The notes beneath the pieces were generated by a model. It was not told the DNA's origin, searched no databases, and saw nothing but the letters and a program-made list of their open reading frames with translations. Positions 11,513 to 58,748 of a stretch of DNA of 64,000 nt are shown piece after piece. Source of the DNA: Halodesulfurarchaeum sp. (GTDB lineage Archaea; Halobacteriota; Halobacteria; Halobacteriales; Halobacteriaceae); assembly GCA_034520565.1 (NCBI GenBank), contig JAXHNL010000002.1, positions 128,001 to 192,000 on the forward strand. The letters run 5' to 3'. Within the stretch, counting starts at the first letter, position 1, and each line of letters starts with the position of its first letter. A program made the translations under genes and the position numbers.

Positions 11513-11518
11513 CTGTTT

Positions 11519-19631: not shown

Positions 19632-21557
19632 ATGGCTCACGAAGTGACGGTGTCTTTCGATCCCTGGGAGGTGGCGGTTGCCGTCGAGGCCGGCGAGACG
19701 ATTCTCGACGCGGCCGAAGCGGGAAACGTCGGAATCGAGGCTCTCTGTGGCGGGAACGGGTTGTGTGGGACCTGTGCGGTACAGGTCGACGGAGCGGATC
19801 CCCCACTCTCCCCGCTCGATCCGGACGAGGAAGACGTCCTCGACGCCGAAGCCATCGCGGACGGTTACCGACTCGGCTGTCGAGCGGCCGTCGAGGGGGA
19901 TCTCTCGGTCTTCGTCCCCGCGGCCTCACGGAGCGAGGGCGAGATCGTGATGACGGAGGGCCAGGAGATCGACTTCGAACACGATCCGGCCATCCGCCGG
20001 TACCAGCTCACGGTTCCCGCGCCGACACTCGAAGAGACACTCCCCGATCGCGAACGGCTCATCGACGGGCTAGCGGCGGAGTACGACCTCGCGATCACCG
20101 ACGTCGACATGGAAGCGCTCACCACGCTCCCGTCGACGATCCGGGAAGGCGAAACGGACAACGAATTTCGAACAACCGCGACCGTGTACAGTGGCGAAGA
20201 AATTCTGGGCGTCGATCCGGGTCGGCCCGGTCACGCCTACGGCCTTGGGATCGACATCGGGACGACCACCCTCGCGATCTATTTGTTGGATCTCCAGTCC
20301 GGCGAGCAGGTGGCCGTGGACTCCAAGCTCAACCCCCAGAGTACCCACGGCGGGGACATCATCAGCCGGGTCCAGTATGCGAGCCAGGAACCCGGCGGGA
20401 AGGCCGAACTTCAGGAGGAGATCCTCGGAGCGATAAACGACAGCATCGCCGAGGTTGCCTCGACGGCCGACATCGACCCGACGGACATCTACGAGGCCGT
20501 CTTCGTCGGCAATACCGCCATGCATCACCTCTTTTTGGGGATCGACGCCGGTCCCGTCGCGGCGAGTCCGTACGTCCCCGGCGCCCAGTCGATTCTCCGA
20601 ACGACGGCGAGAGAACTCGACCTCGACGTGAACCCCTCCGCGTCGGTCTCCTGGCTGCCGATCATCGGCGGCTGGGTGGGGCCGGATTTCGTGGCCGACC
20701 TGCTCGTCGCCGGCGTCCTCGACCGGGAGGAGACCGTCCTTGCCATCGACATCGGGACGAACGGCGAGATCGCCGTTTCGGGGCCCGAAAAAACATACGT
20801 CGCCTCCGCACCGGCAGGCCCGGCACTCGAGGGGGCAGAGATCACTCACGGCGTGCGAGCCAAACCGGGCGCGATCGAGACGGTCAGCCTGGAGCCGGAG
20901 ACCTGGGAGCCCGAATTGGGGATCATTGGTGACGAGCCGCCGATGGGGATCTGTGGCTCGGGGATTATTGACGTCGTGGCCCAGCTCTTTCTCGTCGGGG
21001 CGATCAACCGTCGGGGCCGGCTGATCGACCCGGAGGAGGGGCAGGGTCGGATCCGCGAGACCGAGGATGGCGATCGGGAGTTCGTGCTCGTAGAAGCAGC
21101 CGAGGCAGACATCGACGAGGATATCGTCGTCTCCCAGGAAGATATCCGGGACATCCAGAACGCGAAGGCCGCGATCCAGACCGGCTCTCACGTCCTGCTC
21201 GAGGAGGCCGGTATCGAGTCCGTCGACACGCTCGTCATGGCTGGCGGCTTTGGCAATTACATCGATCCCGAGTCGGCGAAACTCTTGGGCCTCTATCCGG
21301 AGGTCGACGTCGACGACGTCGAGTTCCTCGGGAACGCGGCGGGGTACGGGGCGATGTACGCCCTCCTGAACGAGGGAGCCCGCGAGGAGGCCGAACACAT
21401 CGTCTCGGCGGTCGAATACGTCGAACTCGCCGCCTGGGAGGGCTTTCACGACCTCTTCATGGGCGCGATGTACCTGCCCCATCGGGAGTTCGATCGGTAT
21501 CCCGGGGTGAAATCGAAAGTCGAAGCGGCCCGTGGGGGTCCGATCGACGAGCTCTGA
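19632..21557 (+). CDS. ASKHA-domain reductive activator of corrinoid proteins (RACo/RamA/MtoD-like)
   Basis: N-terminal 2Fe-2S motif CGGNGLCGTC...RLGC; DIGTTT, NPQ..GGDIISR, DIGTNGE, AGPALEG, GICGSG, AGGFG, GNAA. Confidence 0.9.
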   Translation: MAHEVTVSFDPWEVAVAVEAGETILDAAEAGNVGIEALCGGNGLCGTCAVQVDGADPPLSPLDPDEEDVLDAEAIADGYRLGCRAAVEGDLSVFVPAASRSEGEIVMTEGQEIDFEHDPAIRRYQLTVPAPTLEETLPDRERLIDGLAAEYDLAITDVDMEALTTLPSTIREGETDNEFRTTATVYSGEEILGVDPGRPGHAYGLGIDIGTTTLAIYLLDLQSGEQVAVDSKLNPQSTHGGDIISRVQYASQEPGGKAELQEEILGAINDSIAEVASTADIDPTDIYEAVFVGNTAMHHLFLGIDAGPVAASPYVPGAQSILRTTARELDLDVNPSASVSWLPIIGGWVGPDFVADLLVAGVLDREETVLAIDIGTNGEIAVSGPEKTYVASAPAGPALEGAEITHGVRAKPGAIETVSLEPETWEPELGIIGDEPPMGICGSGIIDVVAQLFLVGAINRRGRLIDPEEGQGRIRETEDGDREFVLVEAAEADIDEDIVVSQEDIRDIQNAKAAIQTGSHVLLEEAGIESVDTLVMAGGFGNYIDPESAKLLGLYPEVDVDDVEFLGNAAGYGAMYALLNEGAREEAEHIVSAVEYVELAAWEGFHDLFMGAMYLPHREFDRYPGVKSKVEAARGGPIDEL

Positions 21558-21662
21558 GGCTACAAAAATATAAGTGCTCTTCGAGCGAAATTAACTCGTA
21601 CAGAATCCGAGAAGTGCTTGGAACTCCCGCCGGAAAGACACCGAACACACACGACAGAGACC

Positions 21663-22952
21663 ATGACAGACGAATTCGACGTAACACTGGAGAACTGGGA
21701 ACAGGGGAAGGGAATCGACTTCGAGGACGAGGCGGCTCGCGAGGCCTATCAGGCGCGGGCGGGCCGGCTGGCCACGGCGATCCGCGGGGGCACCCCCGAC
21801 CGCATTCCGACGGTCTTGAGCGCGACGTTTTACCCGGTCTTCCACGCCGGGATCACCCCCGAAACCGCGATGAACGATGCGGCGAAGCTCGCTGCGGCAC
21901 TCGAGGAGACTGTCACCGACCTCGAGCCGGACGGCCAGCAAACCACGGCCGCACTGTTGCCCTCCGCGAAGATGCTCGACATGTTGGACTACAAGCTCTA
22001 CGCGTGGCCAGGCGACGGTGCCTCGCCCACAACTGGATACCAGGCGTTGGAAGACGACTACATGGGAACCGACGATTACGAGCACTTCGTTCGTGATCCA
22101 ACCGACTTCTGGCTGCGGGAGTACATCCCCGAAATCGTCGGCGCGCTCGACGGGTTCAGGCAGTTGCCCAAATTCACCGACCTCGTCGAGATTCCGAACA
22201 TCCACTTCATGGCGATGATGTTCGGACTCCCGGAGGTCCAGGAGTCCCTGGAGACGCTGATGGAGGCCGGCGAAGAGGCCCTTCGATGGCAGGAGATCGT
22301 CGAAGGACGAGCCCAGAACATCATCGAACAGGGGTACCCCCGCTCATTCGGTGGCTTCTCCAAAGCACCCTACGACGTGATCGCCGACACGCTCCGGGGG
22401 ACCCAGGGGGCGTCGATGGACCTCAAGCGCAAACCCGATGAGCTGCTCGAGGCGACCGAATCGCTGATTCCGACGATGATCGACATGGGGATCCGATCCG
22501 CCCACGGGGCAGGCAATCCGCTCGTTTTCATCCCGCTTCACAAGGGGGCCGACGGCTTCATGTCGGAAGCGGAGTTCGAGGACTTTTACTGGGGGCCACT
22601 TCGACAGGTCATCGGCGGTCTCACCGATGTGGGCCTCGTCCCCTGGCTCTTCGCGGAGGGTGGATACAACAACCGCCTCGACGCCATCTCGGACCAGCCC
22701 GACGGGAACATCGTCTGGCAGTTCGACCGGACCGACATGGTCGAAGCCAAAAAGACCCTCGAGGGGCAGGCCGCAATCGCCGGGAACGTCCACAGTTCGT
22801 TGCTCAACACCGAGACGCCCGAAGACGTCACCGAGTACTGCGAGGAACTGATCGCGGACGTCGGCCCCGATGGGTTCATTCTCGCACCGGGCGTGGCTCT
22901 CGACGAAGCCGAACCCGAGAACGTCCGGGCGATGATCGATTCGGTGAAATAA
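21663..22952 (+). CDS. UroD-fold methyltransferase, MtvB/MtoB-like MT1 (copy 1)
   Basis: PDRIP, WPGDG, APYDVIADTLRG, FIPLHKGADGFMS..EFEDFYW, FAEG, IAGNV, GFILAPG, PENV; adjacent to RACo and corrinoid genes. Confidence 0.75.
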   Translation: MTDEFDVTLENWEQGKGIDFEDEAAREAYQARAGRLATAIRGGTPDRIPTVLSATFYPVFHAGITPETAMNDAAKLAAALEETVTDLEPDGQQTTAALLPSAKMLDMLDYKLYAWPGDGASPTTGYQALEDDYMGTDDYEHFVRDPTDFWLREYIPEIVGALDGFRQLPKFTDLVEIPNIHFMAMMFGLPEVQESLETLMEAGEEALRWQEIVEGRAQNIIEQGYPRSFGGFSKAPYDVIADTLRGTQGASMDLKRKPDELLEATESLIPTMIDMGIRSAHGAGNPLVFIPLHKGADGFMSEAEFEDFYWGPLRQVIGGLTDVGLVPWLFAEGGYNNRLDAISDQPDGNIVWQFDRTDMVEAKKTLEGQAAIAGNVHSSLLNTETPEDVTEYCEELIADVGPDGFILAPGVALDEAEPENVRAMIDSVK

Positions 22953-23099
22953 GGGGCGCCCACGCTTCTTTAGTCCTGTCGAGTTCACGCGGGGGACGGA
23001 AACACTCCGTGCCATCACGGACGTTTTCCCAAAAGCTGAATTGATAAAGCGAAAGTAAAACTGCGTATATCGGAGTTTAGCGGGCTCGAGGGCCCAAAA

Positions 23100-23105
23100 T
23101 TATAA
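23100..23105 (+). promoter_or_regulatory. Probable TATA box for the corrinoid protein gene
   Basis: TTATAA preceded by an A-rich stretch, about 35 nt upstream of ATG 23138, in otherwise GC-rich DNA. Confidence 0.4.
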
Positions 23106-23137
23106 TATCATTGTATTCCAATATATAACGGAGTTCG

Positions 23138-23803
23138 ATGTCACAAGAATTCGTAAACGCACTGGCCGATCTCGAGGAGGAGCGAGCGATCGAAATAGCC
23201 GAAGCACGACTCGAGGCGGGTGAGGACCCCCTCGACGTGCTCGACGATCTGAAAAAGGGAATGGGCATCGTCGGTGATCGGTACGCCGACGACGAGTACT
23301 TCATTCCCGACCTGATGTACGCCGGGGAGATCATCGAACAGATCTCCGAGCTGCTCCAGGACCAAATGCCCGAACAGGAGGATGAGTCGATCGGAACCGT
23401 CGTCCTCGGGACCGTCAAGGAAGACATCCACGACATCGGCAAGGATCTCGTCTACTTCATGTTCGACCTCAACGGCTTCAACGTCGTCGACCTCGGCGTC
23501 GACGTCCCGATTCAGGACTTCGTCGACGCCGTCGAGGAGCACGATCCCGAAATCGTCGCGCTCAGTGGCTTCCTCACCGCCGCCTTCGACTCGATGAAGG
23601 AGACCGTCGAGGCACTCGAGGAAGCAGGACTCGTCGAGGAGTTCGACGAGGACGGGATCCGCGATGGCACGAAGGTCATGATCGGCGGGGGCCAGATTAC
23701 AGACGACGTCCGGAATTACGCCCGGGCCGATGGCTTCGAAACCGATGCGCCAGCCGGGGTTACGCTCGCGAAGCAATGGACGGAAGCGAAAATGGAGGCC
23801 TGA
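23138..23803 (+). CDS. Corrinoid (B12-binding) protein, MttC/MtoC-like (copy 1)
   Basis: Cap domain GM.IVGDRY...YFIPDL; DIHDIGK (DxHxxG), LGVDVP, KVMIGG. Confidence 0.92.
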   Translation: MSQEFVNALADLEEERAIEIAEARLEAGEDPLDVLDDLKKGMGIVGDRYADDEYFIPDLMYAGEIIEQISELLQDQMPEQEDESIGTVVLGTVKEDIHDIGKDLVYFMFDLNGFNVVDLGVDVPIQDFVDAVEEHDPEIVALSGFLTAAFDSMKETVEALEEAGLVEEFDEDGIRDGTKVMIGGGQITDDVRNYARADGFETDAPAGVTLAKQWTEAKMEA

Positions 23804-23805
23804 TC

Positions 23806-25104
23806 ATGGCAGCACAAACTCGATCCGGACCGACCCTCGAATCGTGGATCGAGGGCGAGGAAATCGAATTCGTGGACGAAAAAGCAAAAGCCGACTATCA
23901 GAAGCGGGCCAAACGGTTCGCCGACGCGATTCGTGGCGACCAGCCCGACCGGGTCCCGGTCAATCTGCTCAGTACGTTTTACCCGGTCCTGCACGCCGGG
24001 CACACGCCGGCCGAGGCGATGAACGACGCCGAAATCCTCCAGGATTCGTTGCTCACCTTCGTCGACGACCTCGATCCCGACGTGTTTCCGTGGGCGCTCC
24101 CGACGGTCCCATCGGCAGCGGCGCTGGAAACCGTTGAGTACCAGGGCTTCGACTGGCCGGGGGACGGCTCCGCCCCGGAAACGGTCTATCAGGCAAAAGA
24201 GCAGGATTACATGACCGTCGAGGATTACGACGCCTTCCTCAAAGACCCGTCAGACTACCTCCTCCGGGGCTACCTTCCGGAGACGTTCGGGACACTCGGG
24301 GGGATGGCTCAGTTCCCAAAACCCATCAACCTCACCTTCGGGATCGCCGGCGTCCATCCGTTCCTCCTGCCGTTCGGCCTCCCGCCAGTTCGTGAAGCAC
24401 TCGAAACGTTACTCGAGGCCGGTGAGGAAGCGATGGCCTGGCAGCAAGCCGTTGGAAGCACGGTCGCGGAGATCCAGGCCAGTGGCTATCCCCAGAGCTT
24501 CGGTGGCATTACGCTCGCCCCCTACGACATGCTTGGAGACATGCTGCGAGGGACCCGGGGCATCATGAGTGACCTCAAACGTCGGCCGGATCAGTTGCTC
24601 GAGGCGATCGAGCGGATCACTCCGCTGGCCATCGAAAACGGCATCGTCTCGGCCAACGTGGTGAACAACCCGCTGGTGTTCATCCCGCTTCACAAGGGGG
24701 CCGACGGGTTCATGTCTCCAGCGGAGTTCGAAGAGTTCTACTGGCCGTCGCTGCGAGCGGTCATCGAGGCCCTCCTCGACTTGGATCTCGTGCCGTGGCT
24801 CTTTGCCGAGGGGTGCTACGAGACCCGGCTGGAGACGATCAGTGATCTGCCCGAGGGGGATATGGTCTGGCACTTCCAGGACATCGACATGGGCCGGGCG
24901 AAGGACCTCCTGGGCGATCAGGCGTGTATCGCAGGCAACGTGCCGACGTCGCTCCTGAACACCCGAGAACCCGAAGCCGTCACGGAATACTGCGAGGACC
25001 TGCTTTCGACGGTCGGGACCGAGGGGTTCGTCCTGGCCCCCGGCGTCGGCCTCGACGAGGCAAAGCCCGAGAACGTCGAAGCGATGTTCCAGGCCGTCAG
25101 ATAA
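23806..25104 (+). CDS. UroD-fold methyltransferase, MtvB/MtoB-like MT1 (copy 2)
   Basis: Paralog of 21663: PDRVP, WPGDG, APYDMLGDMLRG, FIPLHKGADGFMS, IAGNVP, PENV. Confidence 0.75.
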   Translation: MAAQTRSGPTLESWIEGEEIEFVDEKAKADYQKRAKRFADAIRGDQPDRVPVNLLSTFYPVLHAGHTPAEAMNDAEILQDSLLTFVDDLDPDVFPWALPTVPSAAALETVEYQGFDWPGDGSAPETVYQAKEQDYMTVEDYDAFLKDPSDYLLRGYLPETFGTLGGMAQFPKPINLTFGIAGVHPFLLPFGLPPVREALETLLEAGEEAMAWQQAVGSTVAEIQASGYPQSFGGITLAPYDMLGDMLRGTRGIMSDLKRRPDQLLEAIERITPLAIENGIVSANVVNNPLVFIPLHKGADGFMSPAEFEEFYWPSLRAVIEALLDLDLVPWLFAEGCYETRLETISDLPEGDMVWHFQDIDMGRAKDLLGDQACIAGNVPTSLLNTREPEAVTEYCEDLLSTVGTEGFVLAPGVGLDEAKPENVEAMFQAVR

Positions 25105-25174
25105 TCTTTAGGTCCCTTGGAGTTCCACTTTTTGGAGGACCATACCGGGAAATTAAAAATCGAGAGTCGGTTCG

Positions 25175-26504
25175 TTACTCCTGGCGGGAGAGTCGCAACC
25201 CGTAGACTGCAGCCAGGAACGATGCTACAAACATCGCCGCTGCCAACAGCAATGCTTCGCCATACCCGCCAAAGAAGTCCGCCATGTACCCGAAGAGAAC
25301 AGGCCCGATGGCAAGCCCGGCCCCCACGGAAAACGCGTTGATGTAACTCATCACCATACCGACGTTCTTGCGTCCGAAGAGGGCCGGAACGGCAGCAAAG
25401 TGAAGGATCGGTTGCCCGGGCGTGATGAGAAACAGGATCACGCCGACGACGTAGACCATCAGCAGATTCGAATACGTGAAGTAGAACACCACAAAAATGA
25501 TTGCAGCTAACAGGTAATTTAACCTGAGTGCTCGCGCACGGATCCCCGAGTCTGTCCATCGCCTCCCCCCAGCCCAGCGCAGCAACAATGCCGACGACAC
25601 CGGACATCGCGAAGAAGGTGGGGACAGTGTTACTCGCAATGGTGTCCGGATTGTGGCCGGTTTGACTGAGACCGTCGATCAGGATTGTTGCAATGTTCTG
25701 CAGGAATCCCATGTAGGCAGCGGCAGCGAAAAACATCGCGACGAAGAGTACCCAGAACTTCGCGGTCCTGGCAGCTTCGCCGATGGTGTACTCGCCCCGA
25801 TCGATGTCCGACTCGGGTTCGGCCTCCGGTTCTTCGTCCGATTCGTCCGAGGTTTCGACTTCGAGTTTTCCCGATTCGATCTCCTCCTGCGTCGGGTTTC
25901 GCCACAGCGCGAACCCGAGGACGGCCGTCGCCACGCCACCGGTGGCACCCATCGCGAGAAACACGTCCGCCCCGAATCCGAAAAAGGTGATCAGGAACGT
26001 CGCGAACGGAGCCAGCAGTAATCGTCCGAGGGCTCCACCGAGATTCCCGATTGCCATCGCCCGACCGAGACGGTCACCCCGAAACCATCGGGAAACGGTC
26101 GGGTTCGCCGCCCCCTGTGCCATCCCGGCACCGACGCCGACGATAAAACTCCCCGCGTACCAGGACCACTTTGCCGTCGCCCAATCGTCGGTCGCGAACA
26201 TCACGCCGATGAGCACGAATCCGGCAAAGAACAGTACCGCCGCAAGCCCCAGTGGAACCTTCGGATTATCCATCCAATCGAGAATCGTCCCGGCGATCGG
26301 GGGTCCGATAACCATCGTCCCCACACTGAGTGCAGAGGCACCGATCGCTATTGGCCCGATCACGTCGATGCTAAAGGAGTCTTGAATGAACGGAAACCAA
26401 ATCGACCAGATGCCGGACACTGTGAGCAGTGCTCGAAAAGCTGTTCCTGAGATGGGGTAGTACCATCTCTTATCCGCACCAACACCCTTGTTGAACAATC
26501 CCAT
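25175..26504 (-). pseudogene. MFS transporter with a 1-bp frameshift near 25540 (pseudogene or sequencing error)
   Basis: N-part to ...AMDRLGDP lies in ORF 24918..26504; C-part RALRLNYLLAAIIFVV...GPVLFGYMADFFGGY lies in ORF 25175..25639. Confidence 0.7.
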
Positions 26505-26725
26505 TGTCCATTAATTTCCTTTAATTTCCTTAGATATATAGTTTATCCTCACCATAAATTGGGTATCTGAAGGTGTATTTCCGGCATAAACCGTGATTAT
26601 CGGATCAAAGATCGACATTTACTCGATCCAAAACTACACTATCTAATTCCGATTTGTGCTATTTTCAACAAATTAATAATGGAAATGCGGGAGATATTGA
26701 AATGATTTTCAGTCGAGAGCTAAAG

Positions 26726-27312
26726 ATGGCACATTTCGGTCAGGACGGTGTCGGCCCTGATAGAAGGTGGTTTTGCCCGATTTCCGGACGGACGTTCAGG
26801 TTCTTCCTTGCGTCCCTCGGAATATGGTCCCTCTTTTTCCCCATACATTATGGACGAATTTAGTCTCGAAGTAGTCACTCCGGTTGCTATCGACTCGTCA
26901 ACAGCGGGTGTCGGAGTAATGGTTCTGGGACCGCCAGTTTCTGAGACAGTTCTCGATAAAATAAAAGCCCCAAAGTTCCTCCTTAGAGCTTGCTGCGGTT
27001 GTCTTCGGCGGAGACGCCCTCCTATTGGCGTTACTGTTGAATGTAGACACCTAGACAACGGCAAGTGGTACTGGTACCTCCTCCTGGGTATCGGTGCCGT
27101 GATGTTCCTCTTCTTCGGTGGTGAACCAGTGGTCAACGTCTCCACGGTTCCACATCTCTTCGCCAGTCCAAACATTGAAATGGAAATGGTTTCCTCAACG
27201 CGTTCTCGGTAGGCACGAGAATTGTGCTCGGTCCAACGGTGATGGCCTATCTATCAGACTTTACCGGATCATACATGTGGCCGCTCGTTTTGGCGCTCCT
27301 ATTACGGTTTGA
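26726..27312 (+). pseudogene. Degraded MFS transporter paralog (frameshifts plus large internal deletion)
   Basis: GVGPDRRWFCPISG..FRFFLASLGIWSLFFP / YIMDEFSLEVVTPVAI...GPPVSETVLD / KWYWY then jumps to C-terminal-like VPHLF; collinear with both ends of the 26504 MFS. Confidence 0.7.
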
Positions 27313-27454
27313 ATCGACTAGATTGCCCGGTATGGGATATTATGCGAGCCGTTGAAAATCCGCTCAGTTTTTTTCGTCATATGAAATAGCAGAAGATTAC
27401 ATCCCGGCAATAATTGTCGATAGAACTAAGAGGAGATGAATGTAAGCAAGTAAC

Positions 27455-28768
27455 ATGGGTCAGACTTACGACCTGAAGAACCATCCGTCAGGAGGCGAAT
27501 TGTGGCAAAAATGGGAATCAGGCAGCGATATTGATTTTGTTGACGACGAAGCTCAAGAAACTTACCAACGTCGAGCAACACGGATCCGTAAAGCGATCGA
27601 ACTCAAGGAACCCGACAGGATTCCGGTCCGCTTGGGGGCCGGCTTTCTCGCCGGCCACCTAGCCGACGTGACCTTCGAGGAGATGATGTATGACGCGGAA
27701 AAGGCGAAAAAGGCCATGCGACAGTATAAGGCCGAATTCAAACCGGATCTGAACCCGGTCACGCCACAACCCAGCGGGGAAATGCTGGACACGCTTGGAG
27801 TCGAGTTCTATGACTGGCCGGGGGATGGTCTCAAAGAAAACGTGGGGTATCAAGCGCTCGAAGACGAATACCTTCCCCCCGAGGAGTACGACGAGTTCAT
27901 TGCCGATGTCGAAGGGTGGATGTTGAAGAAATACATGCCGCGGGTGTTTTCCAATCTCGAGGGACTACAGCACCTCCCACAGTTTCTCAGTACGATAGAA
28001 CTCCCCTTCCTCGGCCCCACGTTTTCTGCGTTCGCTAATCCCGATCTTCAGGAAGCGCTTCAAACGTTGATGGAAGCAGGAGAGCAAGGGGCTGCATGGG
28101 GTCAAGAAGTCGGTTCAATAGCTGCAGAAGCAAACGCAGAGGGATTCCCATCAGGTCTGGGAGGGTTCGGAAAGGCCCCCTTCGACATCATTGGAGACAC
28201 GATAAGAGGTACCAGGCCAACGATGGTTGATATGCGTAAACGTCCGGAAAAACTCAAGGAGGCTACGGAAGCTCTCGTCCCTCACGCAATCAAACAGGCC
28301 GTCGGAGGGCCTCTCGCTTCAGGCACACCAATGAACATCTTCGTCCTCCACAAAGGCGACGACTCGTTCATGTCGAAGGAGGATTTCAAGGAGTTCTACT
28401 GGCCGACACTCAAGAAAGTCGTCGATGCGGTCATCGATCGTGGAATCGTTCCCTGGATGTTCGCGGAGGGACGGTATAATGAACGATTAGAAATCGTTGC
28501 AAACGATCATCCCGACGGTCCGATTGTTTGGTACTTCGATAAGACCGATATGAGGCGGGCCAAGGAAATTCTCGGTGACAAAGCGGCCATCGCTGGCAAT
28601 GTCCCCACCGATATCATCAAAACTGGGGATCCAGAGGATGTCGAAGCCTACTGTAAAGATCTTATCGAAGACGTGGGCCCGGAGGGCTTCATTCTCACGC
28701 CCGGTGTGACAGTTTATCGGGCCCCACCCGAAAACCTTCACGCGATCATCGATTCCGTTAAGGAGTAA
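27455..28768 (+). CDS. UroD-fold methyltransferase, MtvB/MtoB-like MT1 (copy 3; visibly lower GC)
   Basis: PDRIPV, YDWPGDG, KAPFDIIGDTIRG, FVLHKGDDSFMS..FKEFYWPTL, FAEG, IAGNVP, PENL. Confidence 0.75.
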   Translation: MGQTYDLKNHPSGGELWQKWESGSDIDFVDDEAQETYQRRATRIRKAIELKEPDRIPVRLGAGFLAGHLADVTFEEMMYDAEKAKKAMRQYKAEFKPDLNPVTPQPSGEMLDTLGVEFYDWPGDGLKENVGYQALEDEYLPPEEYDEFIADVEGWMLKKYMPRVFSNLEGLQHLPQFLSTIELPFLGPTFSAFANPDLQEALQTLMEAGEQGAAWGQEVGSIAAEANAEGFPSGLGGFGKAPFDIIGDTIRGTRPTMVDMRKRPEKLKEATEALVPHAIKQAVGGPLASGTPMNIFVLHKGDDSFMSKEDFKEFYWPTLKKVVDAVIDRGIVPWMFAEGRYNERLEIVANDHPDGPIVWYFDKTDMRRAKEILGDKAAIAGNVPTDIIKTGDPEDVEAYCKDLIEDVGPEGFILTPGVTVYRAPPENLHAIIDSVKE

Positions 28769-28983
28769 ATCTACGCACTCGGAGGGGGTTTTTCGATATC
28801 GTGAGGGAGGAAGCCGAAAGTAATCCCCTAATTGATTGCCTTGTTTTATCCTGTCCGTGGTTACTAAACGTCAAAGCTTACCCTCGAATACTGTTCGCTG
28901 ATTTCCCCAATTCCGAGCCCATCATCAGTGGGATCGGGCAGTCAAAGAACGGACTACTCCCAAAGTCGGATAGCGATCTTTGA

Positions 28984-30004
28984 CCGTCTTGGCCCCGTCG
29001 ATATCCCGGCAACGTCGGCGATATTCTTGGCTACGAAGTGTACGACTGGCCCGGAAATGGCCTCACAGCAGACATGGGTTTCCAGACGAACGAAGGCGAG
29101 TACATGAAAGCCGACGAATACGACGAGCTCATTGCGGACCCCATCCGGTACATGCTGACGAAGTGGTATCTCCGGGCGTTCGACGAGCTCGAGGGACTCG
29201 CCCAGTGGCCGCTTACGACGTACGCGACCGAGTTGACCCTGTTGCCGTTCGAGACGACCGTGTTCGGCACCGAACCGATGCAGCAGGCCCACGACGCCCT
29301 CAAAGAGGCCATCGAGGCGACCCTCCAGTGGAATCAGACCGTCGGGGCCGTTCAGATCAAGGGGAACATGCAGAGATACCCGTCGACGGCGGGTGGGATC
29401 GGAAAGGCGCCCTTCGACGTGCTCGGTGACACCCTTCGGGGGACCCGCAACGTCATGATCGACATGCGAAAGCGTCCGGAGGAGGTAAAGGCCACGGCAG
29501 AAGCGCTCGTTCCAGAAATGATCCAGATGGCCATCGAGGGGCCAAAGCAATCCGGCCTGCCCTTCACGATGTTCGTCCTGCACAAGGGGGCTGACAGCTT
29601 CATGTCCGATGCGGACTGCCGCGAGTTCTACTGGCCGACGCTCAAGATGGTGATGCAGGCGGTCATGGACGAGGGCATCGTCCCGTGGATGTTCGCCGAG
29701 GGAAGTTACGAGGGCCGTCTGGACCTGATCGCGGAAGACCAGCCCGACGGCAAAGTCGTCTGGCACTTCGATCAGACCGACATGGCCCTGGCCAAGGAGA
29801 AACTCGGCGACGAAGCCACGATCGCGGGTAACGTTCCGACTGGCTACATCAAGACCGGCACGCCGGGAAAAAGTGCGGACCTACTGCGAAGACCTCATCG
29901 AGAGCGCCGGACCAGAGGAGTTTTTGCTCACGCCCGGCGCGACGGTCTATCGCGGTCCGGAGGAGAACCTTCAGGCCATCATCGACACGGCGAAGAACGC
30001 GTAA
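28984..30004 (+). pseudogene. UroD-fold methyltransferase copy 4, 5'-truncated and frameshifted
   Basis: Homology begins at ...DILGYEVYDWPG after an in-frame TGA at 28981; about 100 N-terminal aa missing; shift near 29865 restores EKVRTYCEDLIE...TPGATVYRGPEENLQAIID with TAA ending at 30004. Confidence 0.75.
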
Positions 30005-30082
30005 ATCGGTCACGGACAGTTTTCTGATTGAACCTCAAGAAATCCGACACCGTCGAGGTCGGGAAAGGCCGAGGCGGAGTCG

Positions 30083-30931
30083 CTACCTGGACCGGATGTG
30101 ACCGAGGAAGCGTTTTGCGTAATCGTCACGCCCCATCACCAGATCGGCGATCAGTACCGTCTCTCTGGTCTCCCCGGGGTTCAATATCGGGACGTTCAGT
30201 CCCGCCTCGATGGCCATCGCGAGGTACAGGTTGTTGATCCGGTCCCGTTCCGGCATCTCGTAGGAAATGTTGCTCAGGCCCAGCGTGATGTTGTTCCCGA
30301 ACTCCTCCCGAATGGTTTCCATCGCGGTGAGGACGTCCAGCCCGGCATCGGAATCCGTAGAGAGGGGATAGGCCAGTGGGTCCAGGATGACGTCCTCGCG
30401 ATCGACGCCGTACTCGTCGGCCTGTTCGAGGAGCGCTTCGGCGAGTTCGATCCGTCCCTCGGCCGATCCCGGCGGGCCGGACTCGTCCATGGTGAGACCG
30501 ACGACGGCAGTGTCGTACTCCGCGACCAGCGGGAAGATCGTCTCGAGTGAGGGGCCCTCCATGCTGACGGAGTTCACGATCGGTCGGCCCGGCACGACCT
30601 CAAGGGCCGCCTCCAGCGCGTCGGCGTCGTCGTAGTTCGTGTCGATGACGATCGGCACGTCGACTGCGTCGGCGACGGTCTCGACGGCCATCGGCAGGAC
30701 CGTCTCCTTGTCGATGCCGTCGGCGTCCACGTTCACGTCGATCAGGTCGGCTCCGTTCTCGACCTGTTCGAGGGCCAGTTCCCGGACTGGCTCCATGTCC
30801 TCATTCTGCAGGGCCACGGCGAGATCGGACTCCGGTCGGGGATTGATCCGCTCGCCGATGATCCTGACCTGTTCCGTCCGGTCGATCCGAACGGTCTCCT
30901 CCGTCCCTTCGACTTCAGTCACTACTGTCAT
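30083..30931 (-). CDS. Methyltetrahydrofolate:corrinoid methyltransferase (AcsE/MetH pterin-binding domain; MT2)
   Basis: IIGERIN, QVENGADLIDVN, IVIDT, IVNS, ILDPL, GLSNISY.MP.R..IN. Confidence 0.85.
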   Translation of the reverse strand: MTVVTEVEGTEETVRIDRTEQVRIIGERINPRPESDLAVALQNEDMEPVRELALEQVENGADLIDVNVDADGIDKETVLPMAVETVADAVDVPIVIDTNYDDADALEAALEVVPGRPIVNSVSMEGPSLETIFPLVAEYDTAVVGLTMDESGPPGSAEGRIELAEALLEQADEYGVDREDVILDPLAYPLSTDSDAGLDVLTAMETIREEFGNNITLGLSNISYEMPERDRINNLYLAMAIEAGLNVPILNPGETRETVLIADLVMGRDDYAKRFLGHIRSR

Positions 30932-31171
30932 GCTACATGTCGAAACCACTCAACCAGATTCTATAAGGATTGTGTTATCCCTGATCCGACCACGGGATAA
31001 TTTGGCAAAGTCAGCGCCAATCGGTTAGTGCCAATGTAAGTCCCAGTCAACCCGATAACGAACAATTTCAGTTGTGTAAGAACAATCAAATCTGAATAAT
31101 TCGGGCCATATCGGCCCTCTACCCCGGAATCTTTAAGGAATAACCAATCCTCATTTTAACCTGGATCACCG

Positions 31172-31828
31172 ATGTCCGATGAATTCGTACAAGCGTTAGC
31201 CGATCTCGAAGAGGACCGAGCGATTGATATGGCCAAAGAGCGCCTCGAGTCGGGTGAAGACCCCCTCGATGTCCTCGATGACTTGAAAAAGGGGATGGGC
31301 ATCGTCGGCGATCGGTACGCCGACGACGAGTACTTCATTCCCGACCTGATGTACGCCGGGGACATCATCGAACAGATTTCCGAACTCCTGCAAGAGGAAA
31401 TGCCTGATCAAGACGACGAGAACATCGGAACGGTTGTCCTCGGCACCGTCAAGGACGACATCCACGACATCGGCAAGGATCTCGTCTACTTCATGTTCGA
31501 CCTCAACGGCTTCAACGTCGTCGACCTCGGCGTCGACGTCCCGATTCAGGACTTCGTCGACGCCGTCGAGGAGCACGATCCCGAAATCATCGCGCTCAGC
31601 GGCTTTCTCACCGCCGCCTTCGATTCGATGAAAGAGACCGTCGAAGCCCTCGAGGAAGCCGGACTCGTCGAGGAGTTCGACGAGGACGGCGTTCGTGACG
31701 GCACGAAGGTCATGATCGGCGGCGGGCAGATCACCGACGACGTCCGGAATTATGCCCGCGCCGACGGGTTCGAAACGGACGCTCCGAGTGGTGTGACACG
31801 AGCCAAAGACTGGCTCGGCGTCGCCTGA
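31172..31828 (+). CDS. Corrinoid (B12-binding) protein (copy 2)
   Basis: DIHDIGK motif; nearly identical to 23138..23803. Confidence 0.92.
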   Translation: MSDEFVQALADLEEDRAIDMAKERLESGEDPLDVLDDLKKGMGIVGDRYADDEYFIPDLMYAGDIIEQISELLQEEMPDQDDENIGTVVLGTVKDDIHDIGKDLVYFMFDLNGFNVVDLGVDVPIQDFVDAVEEHDPEIIALSGFLTAAFDSMKETVEALEEAGLVEEFDEDGVRDGTKVMIGGGQITDDVRNYARADGFETDAPSGVTRAKDWLGVA

Positions 31829-32081
31829 GTGCTCATTCGACCTGCTGTCGCGATTCCGCGTCCCGATTTCTGAGCGAGAGATGGCCGCTGAACCGTCCCC
31901 GACGGAGTGGCTGTAACAAGGGATTTTCGCGCCGGAGAGACCATCCGAAGCGGGAATTGCCGGCAGGTTTTTCTCCCTCCCAATAGAATCGCACACTCGT
32001 GGTATCCGATGGGTAGCTCGCACTCCGATGCACAGTGGAGCGTACAGTGTATGAACCGCCCCAGCACGAGGTGTCCGTGAG

Positions 32082-33286
32082 ATGGCCGAGGACTATCCCA
32101 CCCGACGGTGGGCGATCCTGGGCCTCGCCTGGGCAGTGTTCTTCTCGATGGCAATGGCGTGGTACATCATGCCAACACTCCAGCCGGATATCCTGAAGCT
32201 GTACGGCATCACGGGCAGCCAATTCCAGCTCGCGTTGACAGTGCCGTTCGGCGTCGCGGCCGTGCTTTCGATTCCCGGCGGGATGCTTGCCGACCGACTC
32301 GGGATCAAACGGGCCGCCAGTCTCGGAATGGCCATTTCGGGGCTGGGTTTCCTCGCTCGGTCCCAAACGGGCGGCTTCCCGGTGTTGATGGGCTCGATGC
32401 TCCTGGTCGGGGTTGGACTCGGGATGGTGATGCCGAACCTCCCGAAGCTGGTCAGCATCTGGTTCCCGCCGAGCGAGACCGGGCTCGCCACCGGGATTTA
32501 CAACACTGGACTGATGGGGGGCATCTCGACCGGGATGATCGTGGCCCCGTTCCTTCCCGGCTGGCAGACGGGAAACCTCCTGCTGGGCGGTATCGTCCTG
32601 GTATTCACGGGTGGGTTCTTCGTTGTCGTCAGGGACACGCCACCGGAAAGGAACTCCCGCCAACGAATCTCGTCGAAGGGCTCCAGCACGCCGTTCGCAG
32701 TAAGAATACGTGGGTCGCGGCGTTCGCGGTTTTCGCGGGGCTCGCCGGCATGGTCGCCATTCAGGGTGAACTGCCGGTCGCCCTCTTCGAGGAATACGGC
32801 ATCGCCCCGGCCACGGGTGGACAGATCGCCTCGCTCATCACCTACGGGGGAATCCTGGGGTCGCTGACGATTCCGACGATCGCCACCAAGCTGGACCGCC
32901 GGAAAGCCGTTCTCGTCACCGCAGCCGTCGGGTTCGGCGTCGTCGAGTTCCCGGTCTGGTTGACCGGCAACACCTCGATCCTGTTCATCGGGACCGCAGT
33001 CGCCGGGTACCTCGCCGGCGGGGCACTCCCGATCATCATGGAGGTCCCGACCTGGTTGCCCCGGGTCGAAAGCGATCCGGTCGAGGCACAGCACGTCGGC
33101 GGTGCCTCCGGCCTGATGACGGCAATGATGAACCTCGGAGGGTTCATCGGACTGCCGTTCATCGTGGGCCCGATCATCGACATGCAGGGCTACACGATCG
33201 GCTTCCTCGTCGCCATGATCATCTTCTCTTTCCAGGGCATCCTGGGCATCTTCTTCACGCTTCCCGAGTTGCACCCCGAAGAGTGA
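32082..33286 (+). pseudogene. MFS transporter with a 1-bp frameshift near 32646 (pseudogene or sequencing error)
   Basis: N-half GGMLADRLGIKR...WFPPSETGLATG...RDTPP; C-half GKELPPTNLVEG...GPIIDMQGY in the other frame (ORF 32108..33286). Confidence 0.75.
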
Positions 33287-33340
33287 TTCGAGCGTACCCG
33301 GTTGCGGCAGTTTTTTACCACGAGATTAGAAACGAATTGT

Positions 33341-34162
33341 ATGAACGGGATCGTCGCCTGCGAGACGTTCTATCCACACCTCGGCCGGATCGACCCGGAC
33401 GCGGAGGTCCGCTATATCCCCCAGTGGTACCACGAATTCCCCATTCACACCCCGGAATCGGAGCGTGCCCACGAGCTGCTCCAGGACCGAATCGACGAAC
33501 TCGAAGGAGAGGGCGTCGACCGGGTGACAGTGCTGTATTCCGACTCCGCTGCGCTCGAGGGGCTCGTCACCGAAACGGTGCCACTCCACGTCTATCGCGG
33601 CGGCGACTGCATCGAGATCTTCCTTTTCGGGGAGCCCAGGGGCCCGGGCGAGGAACGGAAGGACGGCGGCACGTACTACCTGACGAGGGGATGGATCGAC
33701 GTCGGCGTGGATTCCTACAAGGTGTATCACGCATACGCGGGAAAACTCGATGAACTGCGGGAGCGATTCGATCAGGCCGAACGGGCGGATCCCGAAATGC
33801 GAGTCTCGTGGCCGGAGAGCCAGAAAATCTCGCAGGCCGCCACACGGAGCGAGTCGATGCGAACCGATCCGGCTGCCATACTCCGGACCGTGATCGACGC
33901 CTACCGGCACGTCGTCCTGATCGATAACGGCGAATTGCAGCCGTTTCACCACGAGTACGCCGAGTCGTTCAGAACCTTCTTAGCCGAGACCATCCCGGAA
34001 GACGGCCCGAGAGACACGGATCTGACGGTCGTCGACGGCCAACTCGAGACGCTCCGAACGGTGCTCACGTCCCCCGATTCCGCGTCCGACGTGCTGACCC
34101 TGGAACCGGGCACGCCCGTCCCGAAGGAACCTGGATTCAGGCCGGGCCCCCAGCACCACTGA
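33341..34162 (+). CDS. DUF1638-like protein (often adjacent to corrinoid methyltransferase genes)
   Basis: GIVACETF, HE.P, LQDRIDE, VLY, DCIEIFL, GTYYLTRGW, IDNG. Confidence 0.65.
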   Translation: MNGIVACETFYPHLGRIDPDAEVRYIPQWYHEFPIHTPESERAHELLQDRIDELEGEGVDRVTVLYSDSAALEGLVTETVPLHVYRGGDCIEIFLFGEPRGPGEERKDGGTYYLTRGWIDVGVDSYKVYHAYAGKLDELRERFDQAERADPEMRVSWPESQKISQAATRSESMRTDPAAILRTVIDAYRHVVLIDNGELQPFHHEYAESFRTFLAETIPEDGPRDTDLTVVDGQLETLRTVLTSPDSASDVLTLEPGTPVPKEPGFRPGPQHH

Positions 34163-34292
34163 GCGGACGCGTTCGGTAAAGACGAACGGTTTTGGCAGGG
34201 CATGACATCGACTTCCGGTGTCGATACCACCGCCAAACAGGCCCAAAACCGACCGGGGGAACGCTTTTCATCCAGCCACGAGAGGAACAAAT

Positions 34293-35078
34293 ATGGCTCA
34301 CGCACCCATCGGAGCTGTCGACCGCCTGTTCGACATCATCGAAACGATTCAGGTGCGAGACGGGGCCGGCGTCTCGGAACTGGCCGAAGAGTTGGACATG
34401 GCAAAAAGCACGGTGCATGGCCACCTCGCGACGCTCAAAGAACGGGGGTACCTCGTCCAGGACGAAGCAAGTCGGTACCACCTCAGTCTCACGTTTCTCA
34501 CCCTCGGCGGCGCCGTTCGACAGGTACGAACGATCTACAGCCACGTCGAACCGCTCCTCGCGGAAATCGCCAGCGAAACTGGAGAGAGCGTGAATTACGT
34601 GATCGAGTCCCAGGGGAAAATGACCTTCGTCGGGTCGGTTCTCGGCGAGGAGGGAATCAGGACGGAGGTCGACGTCGGCTTTCGGACCGATCTCCATACG
34701 ACGCCGGAGGGGAAGTTGGTCCTCGCCCACCTCCCCGCGTCCCGGCGACGGGAGTTACTCGACGAGATCGAGTTTCCCATCGGTAACTCGGTCGGGCGAG
34801 CTGCATTTACGGCCGAACTCGACGAGATCCGGGAGGCAGGCATCGCCTACGGAAACGAGACCATCGTCAAAAACGTCTCCACGGTCTCGGTTCCGGTGAT
34901 CGACAACGAGGACATCTTCTACGGGGCGATCGTGGTGGCCGGCCCCTCACTGCGATTCACGCAGGATCGCGTCGAGTCGATCAAAGAGACGCTCCAGTAC
35001 AAGGTCGGAAAACTGAACATCGACCTCACGTACGAAACTCAGGAGTCGGTCGTCGAAAACCGTCTCGAGACCCAATAA
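34293..35078 (+). CDS. IclR-family transcriptional regulator
   Basis: GVSELAEELDMAKSTVHGHLATL, ETGESVN, LHTT..GKLVLAHL. Confidence 0.9.
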   Translation: MAHAPIGAVDRLFDIIETIQVRDGAGVSELAEELDMAKSTVHGHLATLKERGYLVQDEASRYHLSLTFLTLGGAVRQVRTIYSHVEPLLAEIASETGESVNYVIESQGKMTFVGSVLGEEGIRTEVDVGFRTDLHTTPEGKLVLAHLPASRRRELLDEIEFPIGNSVGRAAFTAELDEIREAGIAYGNETIVKNVSTVSVPVIDNEDIFYGAIVVAGPSLRFTQDRVESIKETLQYKVGKLNIDLTYETQESVVENRLETQ

Positions 35079-37097: not shown

Positions 37098-37100
37098 TCG

Positions 37101-37709
37101 ATGACCGAGGACGGACCCGGTCCGGGTCGCCCCAGCAAGGTCGCCCGCGTCATCGAGACGTACGATCTCGATGGATTGGGAGCGGAACTCGAGGCGGCAT
37201 GGACCGCACCCGAAAGCGAACGGCAGAGCCTCCGCGAGCTGGCCGAACTGGTCAATCGCCGCGTCGTTCGATCAGTTCTCGAACGGGCGGGCGACCGACC
37301 GTTACCGGGCGAGATCACGACGGTCGTCGAAGCCCTCGCCGGGGAAACCGACCGTGCGACCGAGCGGGACGTGGCGAATAGGCTCGAGAATCTCGGTCTG
37401 GAAAAACCGGAATTGGTGGGGGACATGGTCTCCTACCAGGCCGTCAGGACCTACCTGCAAAGCGTTCGCGGCGCCGAGTACGAGCCCCCGCCGAACGATC
37501 CGACGGAATCGGCCCGGGATCGCATCCAGGGGTTGCAAGGCCGCCTCCGGGCCGTGACCAAGGGCCAGCTCGACGGGCTGGCCGAACGGGACGAGATCTC
37601 GCTGGGCGCGTCTCGAGTCCTCGTTCAGGTCCAGGTCTACTGCGAGGACTGTGGCCGTCAGTTCGACGTGGACGAACTACTCGAGCGGGGCGGCTGTGAC
37701 TGCGAGTAA
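37101..37709 (+). CDS. rdfA: Rod-determining factor RdfA-like protein
   Basis: SKVARVIETYDL, SLRELA...N, VSYQAVRTYL, CEDCG...GGCDC; directly after sph, as in Haloferax. Confidence 0.8.
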   Translation: MTEDGPGPGRPSKVARVIETYDLDGLGAELEAAWTAPESERQSLRELAELVNRRVVRSVLERAGDRPLPGEITTVVEALAGETDRATERDVANRLENLGLEKPELVGDMVSYQAVRTYLQSVRGAEYEPPPNDPTESARDRIQGLQGRLRAVTKGQLDGLAERDEISLGASRVLVQVQVYCEDCGRQFDVDELLERGGCDCE

Positions 37710-42467: not shown

Positions 42468-42611
42468 TCGTTCGTGTGCACTCTGTTCGTGTTCTCCCTT
42501 AAGGTTACGCAAGCCGGTGTCGTCCGGGGATCGGAGCCACCGTTTCTCCCCGGCCGGTCCGGGCACGACCGGACGAACGTTTAACAGGTCCGGAGGGATA
42601 CTCACGAGAAA

Positions 42612-51998: not shown

Positions 51999-52045
51999 GC
52001 AAGTAATACGCGCCTTTTTGTCACCCGCGGCAGAACCGGGTTTCG

Positions 52046-52450: not shown

Positions 52451-52553
52451 CCGAAGCGGCTGGACGATCTGGGATCGGTTGTCGGTACCGGCGAAAGCCG
52501 GGCGACATCAGGTATACTTAACTGGCGAACCGTCGATAGTCCGTTTGTACGCT

Positions 52554-58366: not shown

Positions 58367-58405
58367 GCCCAAAGGGTTAGTATACCCCTCTTCCAATCGG
58401 GAGAC

Positions 58406-58747: not shown

Positions 58748-58748
58748 C

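Follow-up and report, generated by a model that had tools for sequence, protein, structure and literature searches.

A predicted corrinoid-dependent demethylase cluster with paralogous UroD-fold methyltransferases in the haloarchaeon Halodesulfurarchaeum

The order of the genes AF_0006-AF_0012 of Archaeoglobus fulgidus is given in the accessible sections of Welte et al. (2021, PMC8359953), in which AF_0007 encodes MtoB, a protein induced on 2-methoxyphenol. A second point of reference is CdmB, described in the accessible sections of Bernhardt et al. (2026, PMC13222342) as a zinc-free chloromethane methyltransferase I (MT1) of the UroD (uroporphyrinogen decarboxylase) superfamily. According to the same sections, the closest characterized relatives of CdmB are the O-demethylases MtoB (31% identity), MtvB, OdmB, and VdmB; CdmB is inactive on methoxylated aromatics, possesses hydrophobic channels and requires no catalytic residues, and MtvB is likewise zinc-free. 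Here, we describe a locus of comparable gene content in the haloarchaeon Halodesulfurarchaeum sp. (assembly GCA_034520565.1). The window, that is, the whole stretch of DNA that was analysed, comprises 64,000 nucleotides (G000:C2:128001-192000) of a genome of 1.86 Mb in two contigs, and the locus occupies positions 19632-35078 of this window. We propose, with a probability of roughly 0.85, that the locus encodes a four-component corrinoid demethylase system that loads tetrahydrofolate (THF). Its substrate may be aryl methyl ethers, namely methoxylated aromatic acids or phenols as in the Mto, Mtv, and Odm systems, a proposal to which we give even odds.

Genes were called by Pfam and NCBIfam scans of the open reading frames (ORFs) of the window (Table 1), and these scans confirmed every item in the list and order of elements that had been drawn up in a sequence-only reading of the same DNA. 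The four-component layout proposed in that reading is present: an MT1, a corrinoid protein, a THF-type methyltransferase II (MT2), and a RACo-type activase, together with genes of the major facilitator superfamily (MFS). The pterin-type MT2 and the ATP-dependent RACo-type activase (Fer2 and three RACo domains) are those expected of an O-demethylase system. The ORF of the activase begins at position 19572 and its likely start is M21 (position 19632); the protein combines an N-terminal 2Fe-2S ferredoxin domain (Cys59, Cys65, Cys68, and Cys103, numbered from the ORF start at 19572) with an ASKHA ATPase, scores 442 bits against the AcsV-like NCBIfam model, which is under the 800-bit cut-off, and is 73-81% identical to the copies of its relatives. 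The two corrinoid proteins, CoP1 and CoP2, match at 194 of 218 aligned positions (88% identity), and both have the B12 cap, Rossmann domain, and DxHxxG motif of the small corrinoid proteins of O-demethylases; the best solved relative of CoP2 is 4jgi (E 3.5e-38), presumably a corrinoid protein of Desulfitobacterium. The MT2 scores 248.5 bits against PRK07535, just under the cut-off of 259, and its best solved relatives are 2yci (144.5 bits), the MeTr of C. hydrogenoformans, and, at about the same level, 4o0q/4o1e (140 bits), which we take to be the MT2 of a Desulfitobacterium O-demethylase. The structure 4O1E also served to place methyl-H4F in the model of CdmA (accessible sections of Bernhardt et al., 2026, PMC13222342).

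The UroD-fold proteins of the locus are neither HemE nor zinc-dependent methyltransferases of the MtaA type. Identity with HemE was rejected because the proteins score 23.5-31.4 bits against TIGR01464, for which the cut-off is 303, and RQAGR occurs in none of the four copies; the zinc-dependent MtaA/MtbA/CmuA type was rejected because the scores are 18-39 bits against cut-offs of 235-600, and neither an HxC motif nor a conserved Cys is present. As had been noted from the sequence alone, LHKG and FAEG occur in all four copies, and each copy contains one to three cysteines, none of which is conserved among the four. In a search of solved structures, the best match of MT1c was CdmB of Acetobacterium dehalogenans (9rui; E 1.4e-31, 112.9 bits in three stretches), followed by UroD at approximately 25 bits, and a profile built from 14 MT1 sequences increased this distance (CdmB, 189.8 bits; best UroD, 28.3 bits), with MtaA not listed by the profile even at E ≤ 10. 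The AlphaFold2 model of MT1c (pLDDT 87.7) forms a UroD-like TIM barrel. A Foldseek search of this model against the PDB (to 2026-04-08) matched UroD (TM 0.54-0.70) and MtaA, and CdmB/9rui was not among the matches listed; matches of the MT1s in the protein atlas are labelled only "URO-D family." By profile, identity, and trees, the MT1s group with CdmB and MtoB, and not with HemE or the zinc MT2 enzymes; a grouping with either of the latter would have spoken against the demethylase proposal. We place them, by their sequences, in the long UroD-fold MT1 group (CdmB/MtoB/MtvB type), to which they are homologous over their full length. Among the paralogs, MT1a and MT1b are 54% identical. MT1a is the most conserved, with 83-86% identity to its orthologs in the same genus and 77% to that in Halalkaliarchaeum sp. 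AArc-CO (G394), while MT1b is 68-86% identical to its orthologs and the nearest relatives of MT1c are metagenome proteins (69% identity).

The Mto system provides a reference O-demethylase for these proteins. Genome G551 contains a cluster in the order corrinoid protein, MT1, MFS, MtrH-like, RACo, corrinoid protein, and MT1, the first MT1 of which (P0121) is named Archaeoglobus fulgidus by its sources and was assigned to AF_0007 by gene order. Along almost all of its length, MT1c shares 29% identity with P0121 (E 5e-51). The first MFS transporter of the locus (MFS1) shares 30% identity with the transporter encoded at the AF_0008 position (E 6e-47), a much closer match than that to its best NCBIfam model (68 bits). 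Furthermore, when the three intact window MT1s were aligned with three relatives and five MtoB-like proteins, His299 and Glu338 of MT1c were unchanged in every sequence, and according to the secondary-structure string of the MT1c model they follow directly after beta-strands 293-298 and 332-337. In a HMMER alignment, the corresponding positions of CdmB are occupied by Trp and Gln. Because the His and Glu are kept in MtoB-like proteins and replaced in CdmB, there is a hint that the window MT1s, like MtoB, may need polar groups to activate a C-O or similar bond, unlike CdmB, which acts only as a hydrophobic scaffold. The accessible passages of the literature on MtoB and CdmB assign no role to these two positions. 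The proposal of aryl methyl ethers draws on the relatedness of the MT1s to MtoB, on the His and Glu common to both, on an MFS resembling that of Mto, and on the presence of multiple paralogs. In addition, from the likeness of MFS1 to the AF_0008-position transporter, the MFS, TRAP, and SSF carriers of relatives, and a Na+/solute symporter annotated in the H. formicicum cluster, we infer that the substrate is probably polar or anionic.

Table 1. Features of the Halodesulfurarchaeum sp. locus and its surroundings (positions in the window).
Feature	Position	Strand	Domains and remarks
MATE efflux transporter	18040-19482	+	Pfam MatE, 208 bits
RACo-type reductive activase of corrinoid proteins	19632-21557	+	Fer2, RACo_linker, Raco_middle, RACo_C_ter (288 bits)
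MT1a, UroD-fold substrate:corrinoid methyltransferase	21663-22952 (ORF from 21618)	+	URO-D, C-terminal half only
CoP1, corrinoid protein	23138-23803	+	B12-binding_2 and B12-binding; DIHDIG at residue 96
MT1b, second UroD-fold MT1 paralog	23776-25104	+	URO-D, 72 bits
MFS1, oxalate/formate-antiporter-like	25178-26504 (ORF 24918-26504)	-	MFS_1; frameshifted at ~25535 as assembled
Second MFS1-type gene, remnant with internal deletion	26741-27361	+	Fragments aligned to intact homolog
MT1c, third UroD-fold MT1 paralog, atypical composition	27455-28768	+	URO-D, 78 bits
MT1d pseudogene	~28954-30001 (URO-D ORF 29038-30027)	+	tblastn with intact ortholog P0014
MT2, methyl-corrinoid:tetrahydrofolate methyltransferase (MeTr/AcsE type)	30083-30949	-	Pterin_bind, 93 bits
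CoP2, corrinoid protein	31172-31828	+	B12-binding_2 and B12-binding; DIHDIG at residue 96
MFS2, transporter	32091-33286 (ORF from 32108)	+	Frameshifted at ~32645 as assembled
DUF1638 protein	33302-34162	+	PF07796, 51.8 bits
IclR-family transcription regulator	34218-35078	+	HTH_IclR and IclR_C
C1 island: FdhA, cupin, MTTB-family methyltransferase, formate-THF ligase, second FdhA	49953-58366	+	Pfam

Mto-like clusters were also observed in three other genomes (G545, G458, and G657), in which the loci L121, L122, and L124 contain a corrinoid protein, an MtoB-like MT1, RACo, and an MtrH-like gene; their proteins are named Methanomicrobium sp. W14, Methanoregula boonei, and Methanoplanus limicola, respectively. 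Methanomicrobium sp. W14 contains five MT1 genes, each of which adjoins a corrinoid-protein gene. It is possible that these Methanomicrobiales are unrecognised methoxydotrophs.

Two phylogenetic trees were inferred by quick searches, one of 104 sequences under LG+G4 with one MT1 per non-haloarchaeal locus (tree 1) and one of 58 sequences under LG+C20 PMSF (tree 2). A short MtaA-like protein from the window genome served to root both trees, which include this outgroup and MtoB-like proteins, not MtvB, OdmB, VdmB, CdmB, or CmuA. The haloarchaeal MT1s form one group (SH-aLRT 100 in tree 1 and 82 in tree 2), in which a Hadarchaeota protein and two proteins from metagenomes are also included. It is divided into the lineages a, b, and c/d, and G394 and Halodesulfurarchaeum are both represented in all three; thus, the duplications of MT1 predate the split of the two genera. 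The neighbouring clades comprise proteins of Ca. Frackibacter, Bipolaricaulota, Thermotogae, Halanaerobiales, and Anaerolineae, and in both trees the MtoB-like clade nests inside the MT1 family, apart from the MtaA-like outgroup.

Within Halobacteria, the MT1 family is found (E ≤ 1e-30) in only five of 401 genomes: the window genome, all three other Halodesulfurarchaeum genomes, and G394, the single positive genome among the 154 of its family. A phylum-wide profile search recovered weaker full-length relatives in 28 of 401 genomes, among them 17 of the 64 in one family. A search for synteny across Halobacteria, as the sequence-only reading had suggested, showed that the cluster is syntenic in all three other genomes of the genus and present in G394. 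The order kept within the genus is IclR, DUF7124, TrmO, RACo, MT1a, CoP, MT1b ... MFS, MT2, CoP, MT1, MFS, DUF1638, and IclR, with the middle part rearranged among the Halodesulfurarchaeum genomes, and a shorter core (RACo, MT1a, MT2, CoP, and DUF1638) is found in one further Halobacteriales metagenome-assembled genome (MAG). The nine haloarchaeal loci compared represent eight distinct places, as L095 and L002 lie on one contig. DUF1638 is present at seven of the nine, the two without it being the truncated locus L003 and the separate MT1b-CoP locus L094, and the IclR protein is 61-74% identical in relatives. Outside this class, the family is large: 223 clusters (50% identity) match it at E ≤ 1e-30, and the reference genomes contain at least 621 loci. 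When 78 loci were examined by tblastn with the window proteins, a corrinoid protein was found at 63, a Pterin_bind MT2 at 31, and RACo at 24, many of the contigs being short. A Pfam scan of six loci in relatives identified GntR/UTRA at four, DUF1638 at three, an adjacent MFS at three, and TRAP DctPQM with SSF at one. In addition, four loci in Dehalococcoidia/Chloroflexota MAGs (L022, L066, L071, and L057) were observed to contain six to nine MT1 paralogs with a single corrinoid protein within ~20 kb.

The gene content of the locus would be consistent with the following route. A methylated organic compound may be imported by the MFS carriers, and MT1a, MT1b, or MT1c, whose family membership is clear and each of which would be specific to its substrate, would transfer the methyl group of this compound to the Co(I) of CoP1 or CoP2. 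The MT2, whose family is equally clear, would then pass the methyl group from CH3-Co(III) to THF, the acceptor being suggested by the family and by the fact that haloarchaea use folates. Cobalt accidentally oxidised to Co(II) would be restored to the Co(I) state by RACo, probably with the DUF1638 protein, at the expense of ATP and one low-potential electron; the families of both proteins are identified, and the part played by DUF1638 is proposed from bacterial genetics. In Phaeobacter, mutation of DUF1638 has effects like those of mutations in the split methionine synthase and in its RamA-like activase, and the DUF1638 and RamA-like families co-occur (accessible sections of Price et al., 2018, PMC5764234). 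A 2025 PNAS paper (PMC12478193, accessible sections) regards DUF1638 and RamA-like proteins as a cobalamin-recharging module. No solved relative of DUF1638 was identified at E ≤ 1, and we consider the protein a likely helper of corrinoid reactivation by analogy to these bacterial modules. The hydroxylated product would be excreted, and the IclR protein probably regulates the cluster.

Genes for the further oxidation of methyl-THF are encoded 20-30 kb downstream of the cluster. The C1 island listed in Table 1 (FTHFS, the formate-THF ligase, 802 bits) extends to 49953-63590 when a second RACo and an MtrH/MtgA-like methyltransferase gene, the latter 27 kb downstream of the cluster, are included; the domains of this second RACo begin at residue 331 of a 967-aa ORF, and its true start is therefore probably later. 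Methylene-THF reductase (MTHFR) and FolD are encoded at and just past the end of the window, and CobS elsewhere in the genome. Since FTHFS, FdhA, MTHFR, and FolD are all encoded, methyl-THF can be taken to CO2, with one ATP gained at the formate-THF ligase step. The predicted coupling is that methyl-THF would be oxidised via MTHFR, FolD, formate-THF ligase, and the formate dehydrogenases to yield ATP and electrons for the respiration of sulfur, thiosulfate, or dimethyl sulfoxide (DMSO). Other corrinoid-related genes lie outside the window. At G000:C2:41573-43389 (L125:5573-7389), a short UroD protein of the MtaA/CmuA family (379 aa; TIGR01463, 164 bits, under the cut-off of 235) adjoins a corrinoid protein, and a gene for an OpuAC-type betaine-binding protein is located 1.8 kb from this module. 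A 1046-aa ORF with a Pterin_bind domain is also present elsewhere in the genome.

Evidence that the cluster is expressed comes from a cultured relative. Spectral counts for H. formicicum HTSR1 under three conditions are given in Table S11 of Sorokin et al. (2017, PMC5437934; accessible sections, here and below), and we matched the HTSR tags to genes by annotation and order. The "ferredoxin" HTSR_1705, assigned as RACo, has counts of 10/21/4; the UroD proteins HTSR_1706 and HTSR_1712 have 12/28/5 and 5/21/6; the MT2 HTSR_1710 has 11/25/2; the B12-binding protein HTSR_1711 has 13/13/6; and the IclR protein HTSR_1715 has 8/11/19. The two MFS proteins, HTSR_1709 and HTSR_1713, have 0/0/0, and a Na+/proline symporter in the H. 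formicicum cluster (HTSR_1708) has 0/2/0. The genus is described as lithoheterotrophic, with formate or H2 as its only electron donors, and 13 organic donors, none of which was methylated, were all negative (Sorokin et al., 2017, PMC5437934); the term "cobalamin" does not occur in the main text of this description. Traces of methanethiol are reported to appear in H. formicicum cultures while they reduce sulfur (Sorokin et al., 2017, PMC5437934), and it is tempting to speculate that this compound arises from a methyl-corrinoid pool reacting with sulfide.

Several points weigh against the reading proposed here. The window MT1s are only 27-29% identical to MtoB-like proteins, the MtoB-like clade stands on a long branch with a long-branch warning in tree 1, and relatedness to MtvB, OdmB, and VdmB depends on the placement of CdmB in the accessible sections of Bernhardt et al. 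(2026, PMC13222342), in which CdmB itself illustrates that close relatives of O-demethylases can take a quite different substrate. In the window family the His is followed by an inserted Lys-Gly that is absent from MtoB and CdmB, and a catalytic role of His299 and Glu338 is our own suggestion from the alignment. HTSR1 makes the soluble proteins of the cluster without an added methoxylated compound, and neither MFS was counted (PMC5437934, accessible sections). IclR regulators are common in haloarchaea, so that of the cluster says little about aromatics. Lastly, as assembled, MFS1 and MFS2 are frameshifted, one further MFS gene is a remnant, and MT1d is dead.

These points bear most directly on the substrate. 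The same machinery might work in the same direction on another methylated compound common in brines, for instance an S-methyl, N-methyl, or non-aromatic O-methyl carboxylate, such as dimethylsulfoniopropionate (DMSP), methylmercaptopropionate, or methoxy-acids, in which case the MT1 clade would represent a new substrate class within the UroD superfamily; we hold this alternative to be distinctly less probable than aryl ethers, and the best placed of the alternatives. The clade of the window MT1s, with its 223 clusters and at least 621 loci, is uncharacterised, its identity to MtoB-like proteins is low, and the clade is frequent in MAGs of Desulfobacterales, Halanaerobiales, and Anaerolineae, often as a single MT1 with one corrinoid protein. 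The TRAP and SSF carriers in the cassette of one relative point to carboxylates generally and not to aromatics specifically, the other corrinoid modules of the genome adjoin osmolyte-related genes, and HTSR1 expresses the cluster on yeast extract without an aromatic ether (accessible sections of PMC5437934). On the other hand, the only characterized members nesting in the family in both trees are MtoB-type aryl ether demethylases, and MFS1 resembles the carrier of the Mto cluster. The known S-methyl enzymes, MtsA and MtpA, are of the short zinc-dependent MtaA type and the known quaternary-amine enzymes are of the MttB type, and proteins of both types exist separately in this genome.

Another alternative is that the cluster, whatever its role in relatives, is decaying and non-functional in this strain. 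In tblastn, residues 78-380 of P0014, from a Halodesulfurarchaeum MAG, match MT1d in one frame and residues 372-425 in another; the gene has a 5' truncation, an in-frame stop (TGA) near its 5' end, and a frameshift at ~29865. Thus, of the four UroD-fold paralogs claimed in the sequence-only reading, three (MT1a, MT1b, and MT1c) are intact and the fourth is a pseudogene. The MFS remnant recognised in the same reading is real, as its fragments match residues 5-38, 369-406, and 408-464 of a 465-aa homolog of the MFS1 family. MFS1 itself aligns to an intact 465-aa homolog, and MFS2 to a 398-aa homolog, in each case in two frames, which join at ~25535 and ~32645. The stretch around MT1c is low in GC (0.511 over 26001-28000, when the majority of the remaining 2-kb bins in the window range from about 0.60 to 0.67), and its gene arrangement differs from that of the type strains. 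Contigs from public runs (X1-X4) were mapped onto positions 24900-33300 of the window. The X1 contigs are identical to the window, X1 containing 96% of the sampled words, and they span MT1d and the MFS remnant without any difference; these two are therefore real lesions, with the reservation that X1 is possibly the source sample of the genome and would then be an independent assembly rather than independent data. By contrast, the X1 contigs leave uncovered 25513-25538 and 32638-32663, which are exactly the two MFS frameshift sites, and at 32641/32642 a single additional base is present in the related strains of X3 and X4. Because the contigs break at both sites, the status of the frameshifts is ambiguous, and they may be real lesions, population variants, or assembly errors. 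The completeness of the genome is 80.68% on two contigs, compared with 98-99% at 2.1-2.2 Mb in genomes of the same genus, which, with the contig breaks at the MFS sites, hints at either consensus indel errors or real gene decay. Since the uptake genes are broken or doubtful in this assembly, the pathway may be impaired in this strain. Nevertheless, RACo, MT1a, MT1b, MT1c, both corrinoid proteins, MT2, DUF1638, and IclR are intact and 54-86% identical to their orthologs in the genus, the low completeness fits some consensus errors, and cultured relatives carry the cluster genes intact; we therefore regard outright decay as improbable. Taken together, the type of system proposed from the sequence alone stands, and three of its particulars need amendment: three MT1s and not four are intact, the MATE pump is specific to this genome, and the MFS genes are broken or doubtful.

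We see little prospect for a Cdm-like dehalogenase that acts on chloromethane or bromomethane. CdmB is the best solved relative of MT1c, CdmB and MtvB are zinc-free, as the window MT1s appear to be, and hypersaline settings are sources of methyl halides. However, where CdmB has Trp and Gln, the window MT1s and MtoB-like proteins share His and Glu, the transporters conserved in the clusters of relatives would not be needed for a gas, and CdmB works with hydrophobic channels and needs no catalytic residues (accessible sections of Bernhardt et al., 2026, PMC13222342). The searchable supplements of that paper contain no haloarchaeal name, the terms Halodesulfurarchaeum, Halobacteri, Frackibacter, and Halanaero having zero mentions. 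The polar His299 and Glu338 and the distance of the CdmB match (112.9 bits) do not agree with the hydrophobic, residue-poor cavity and the close identity to CdmB that would be expected of a Cdm chloromethane system.

A biosynthetic relay running in reverse is similarly remote. In this relay, methyl-THF would methylate the corrinoid protein, and the methyl group would end on an acceptor, for example homocysteine, an arrangement known from roseobacters, whose split methionine synthases likewise use RamA-like and DUF1638 proteins. In its favour, split MetH of Phaeobacter depends on both of these proteins (PMC5764234), their levels increase along with MtgBCD in Ruegeria, which uses a single corrinoid protein for the two roles (PMC12478193), and expression in HTSR1 is constitutive (PMC5437934; accessible sections of all three). 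Against it, the MT1s lack a zinc-thiolate site, and the combination of three diverged paralogs, transporters, and a dedicated regulator is in keeping with catabolism. A 1046-aa Pterin_bind ORF exists separately in this genome, a methionine synthase is annotated elsewhere in H. formicicum (PMC5437934), and presence in five of 401 Halobacteria genomes does not fit a housekeeping role.

The surroundings of the cluster include several further genes. The MATE pump that was noted just upstream does adjoin the cluster, but it is not a conserved part of it: at the nine related haloarchaeal loci, no MATE homolog covering at least half of the query was found, and in relatives TrmO directly adjoins RACo with no MATE between. 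Immediately downstream, at 35174-37709, an ASRP (SMC-related) ORF of 735 aa is matched by relatives and by the NCBIfam model over residues 1-458 only, and an RdfA ORF overlaps its 3' end, which suggests that the ASRP ORF is over-extended or frameshifted. The minus strand carries a polysulfide-reductase-like molybdopterin oxidoreductase operon at 10430-14517 (catalytic subunit, 4Fe-4S subunit, and NrfD) and, at 38184-42605, genes with DAO, FAD_binding_2, and CCG domains that look like a GlpABC anaerobic glycerol-3-phosphate dehydrogenase.

A conserved demethylase cluster, expressed in HTSR1, together with a complete folate route of C1 oxidation predicts that methyl groups are a further energy source for these organisms. 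If this is true, Halobacteria would gain a new physiological type, and methoxylated or otherwise methylated compounds would have a new sink in salt-saturated settings. Strains with intact clusters are in culture, which makes the prediction directly testable and gives access, through cultured organisms, to a large MT1 family that is uncharacterised. Should the substrate instead be one of the non-aromatic compounds considered above, small methylated carboxylates of brines and marine sediments, the two genera Halodesulfurarchaeum and Halalkaliarchaeum would count as "methyl-respiring" haloarchaea, oxidising methyl groups on folate at the expense of sulfur or DMSO, and the family would point to a route of demethylation so far overlooked in Desulfobacterales, Dehalococcoidia, Anaerolineae, and Halanaerobiales. 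As the sequence-only reading had anticipated, no publication on corrinoid demethylation in haloarchaea was found in a literature that covered subscription journals thinly.

Comparison with the known systems shows substantial likenesses and differences. The betaine systems MtgB/MtgC/MtgA and split MetH share with the locus a module of corrinoid protein, THF methyltransferase, RamA/RACo, and DUF1638; by contrast, the MT1 of the Mtg type belongs to the MttB family, another TIM-barrel family, and does not have the UroD fold. CdmBCA of Acetobacterium dehalogenans (9rui) includes the best solved relative of the MT1s, with which it shares a long UroD fold with N-terminal extensions and the absence of a zinc site, whereas CdmB has Trp and Gln in place of His299 and Glu338 and receives small hydrophobic haloalkanes via tunnels, as described in the accessible sections on that enzyme. 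The bacterial O-demethylases (MtvABC of Moorella thermoacetica, Odm and Vdm of Acetobacterium dehalogenans, and those of Desulfitobacterium hafniense) resemble the locus in their THF-dependent Pterin_bind MT2, small corrinoid protein, several substrate-specific MT1 paralogs, and RACo-like activating enzyme. Their hosts are acetogens or organohalide respirers with the Wood-Ljungdahl pathway, whereas the host of the window is a sulfur-respiring haloarchaeon. The Mto system (A. fulgidus AF_0006-AF_0013 and Methermicoccus shengliensis; MtoB, MtoC, MtoA, and MtoD with an MFS) shares a corrinoid protein, UroD-fold MT1 paralogs, a RACo-type activase, an MFS, and a regulator, and the likeness extends to a full-length homologous MT1 (29%), the shared His and Glu, and a homologous MFS (30%). 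By contrast, the MT2 of the window is of the Pterin_bind type acting on THF, whereas that of Mto is of the MtrH type thought to use tetrahydromethanopterin (H4MPT), and the MT1s of the window fall in a separate, uncharacterised clade with a Lys-Gly insertion after the His. In addition, DUF1638 is part of the conserved haloarchaeal cluster, and the electrons released from the methyl group would go to the respiration of sulfur or DMSO.

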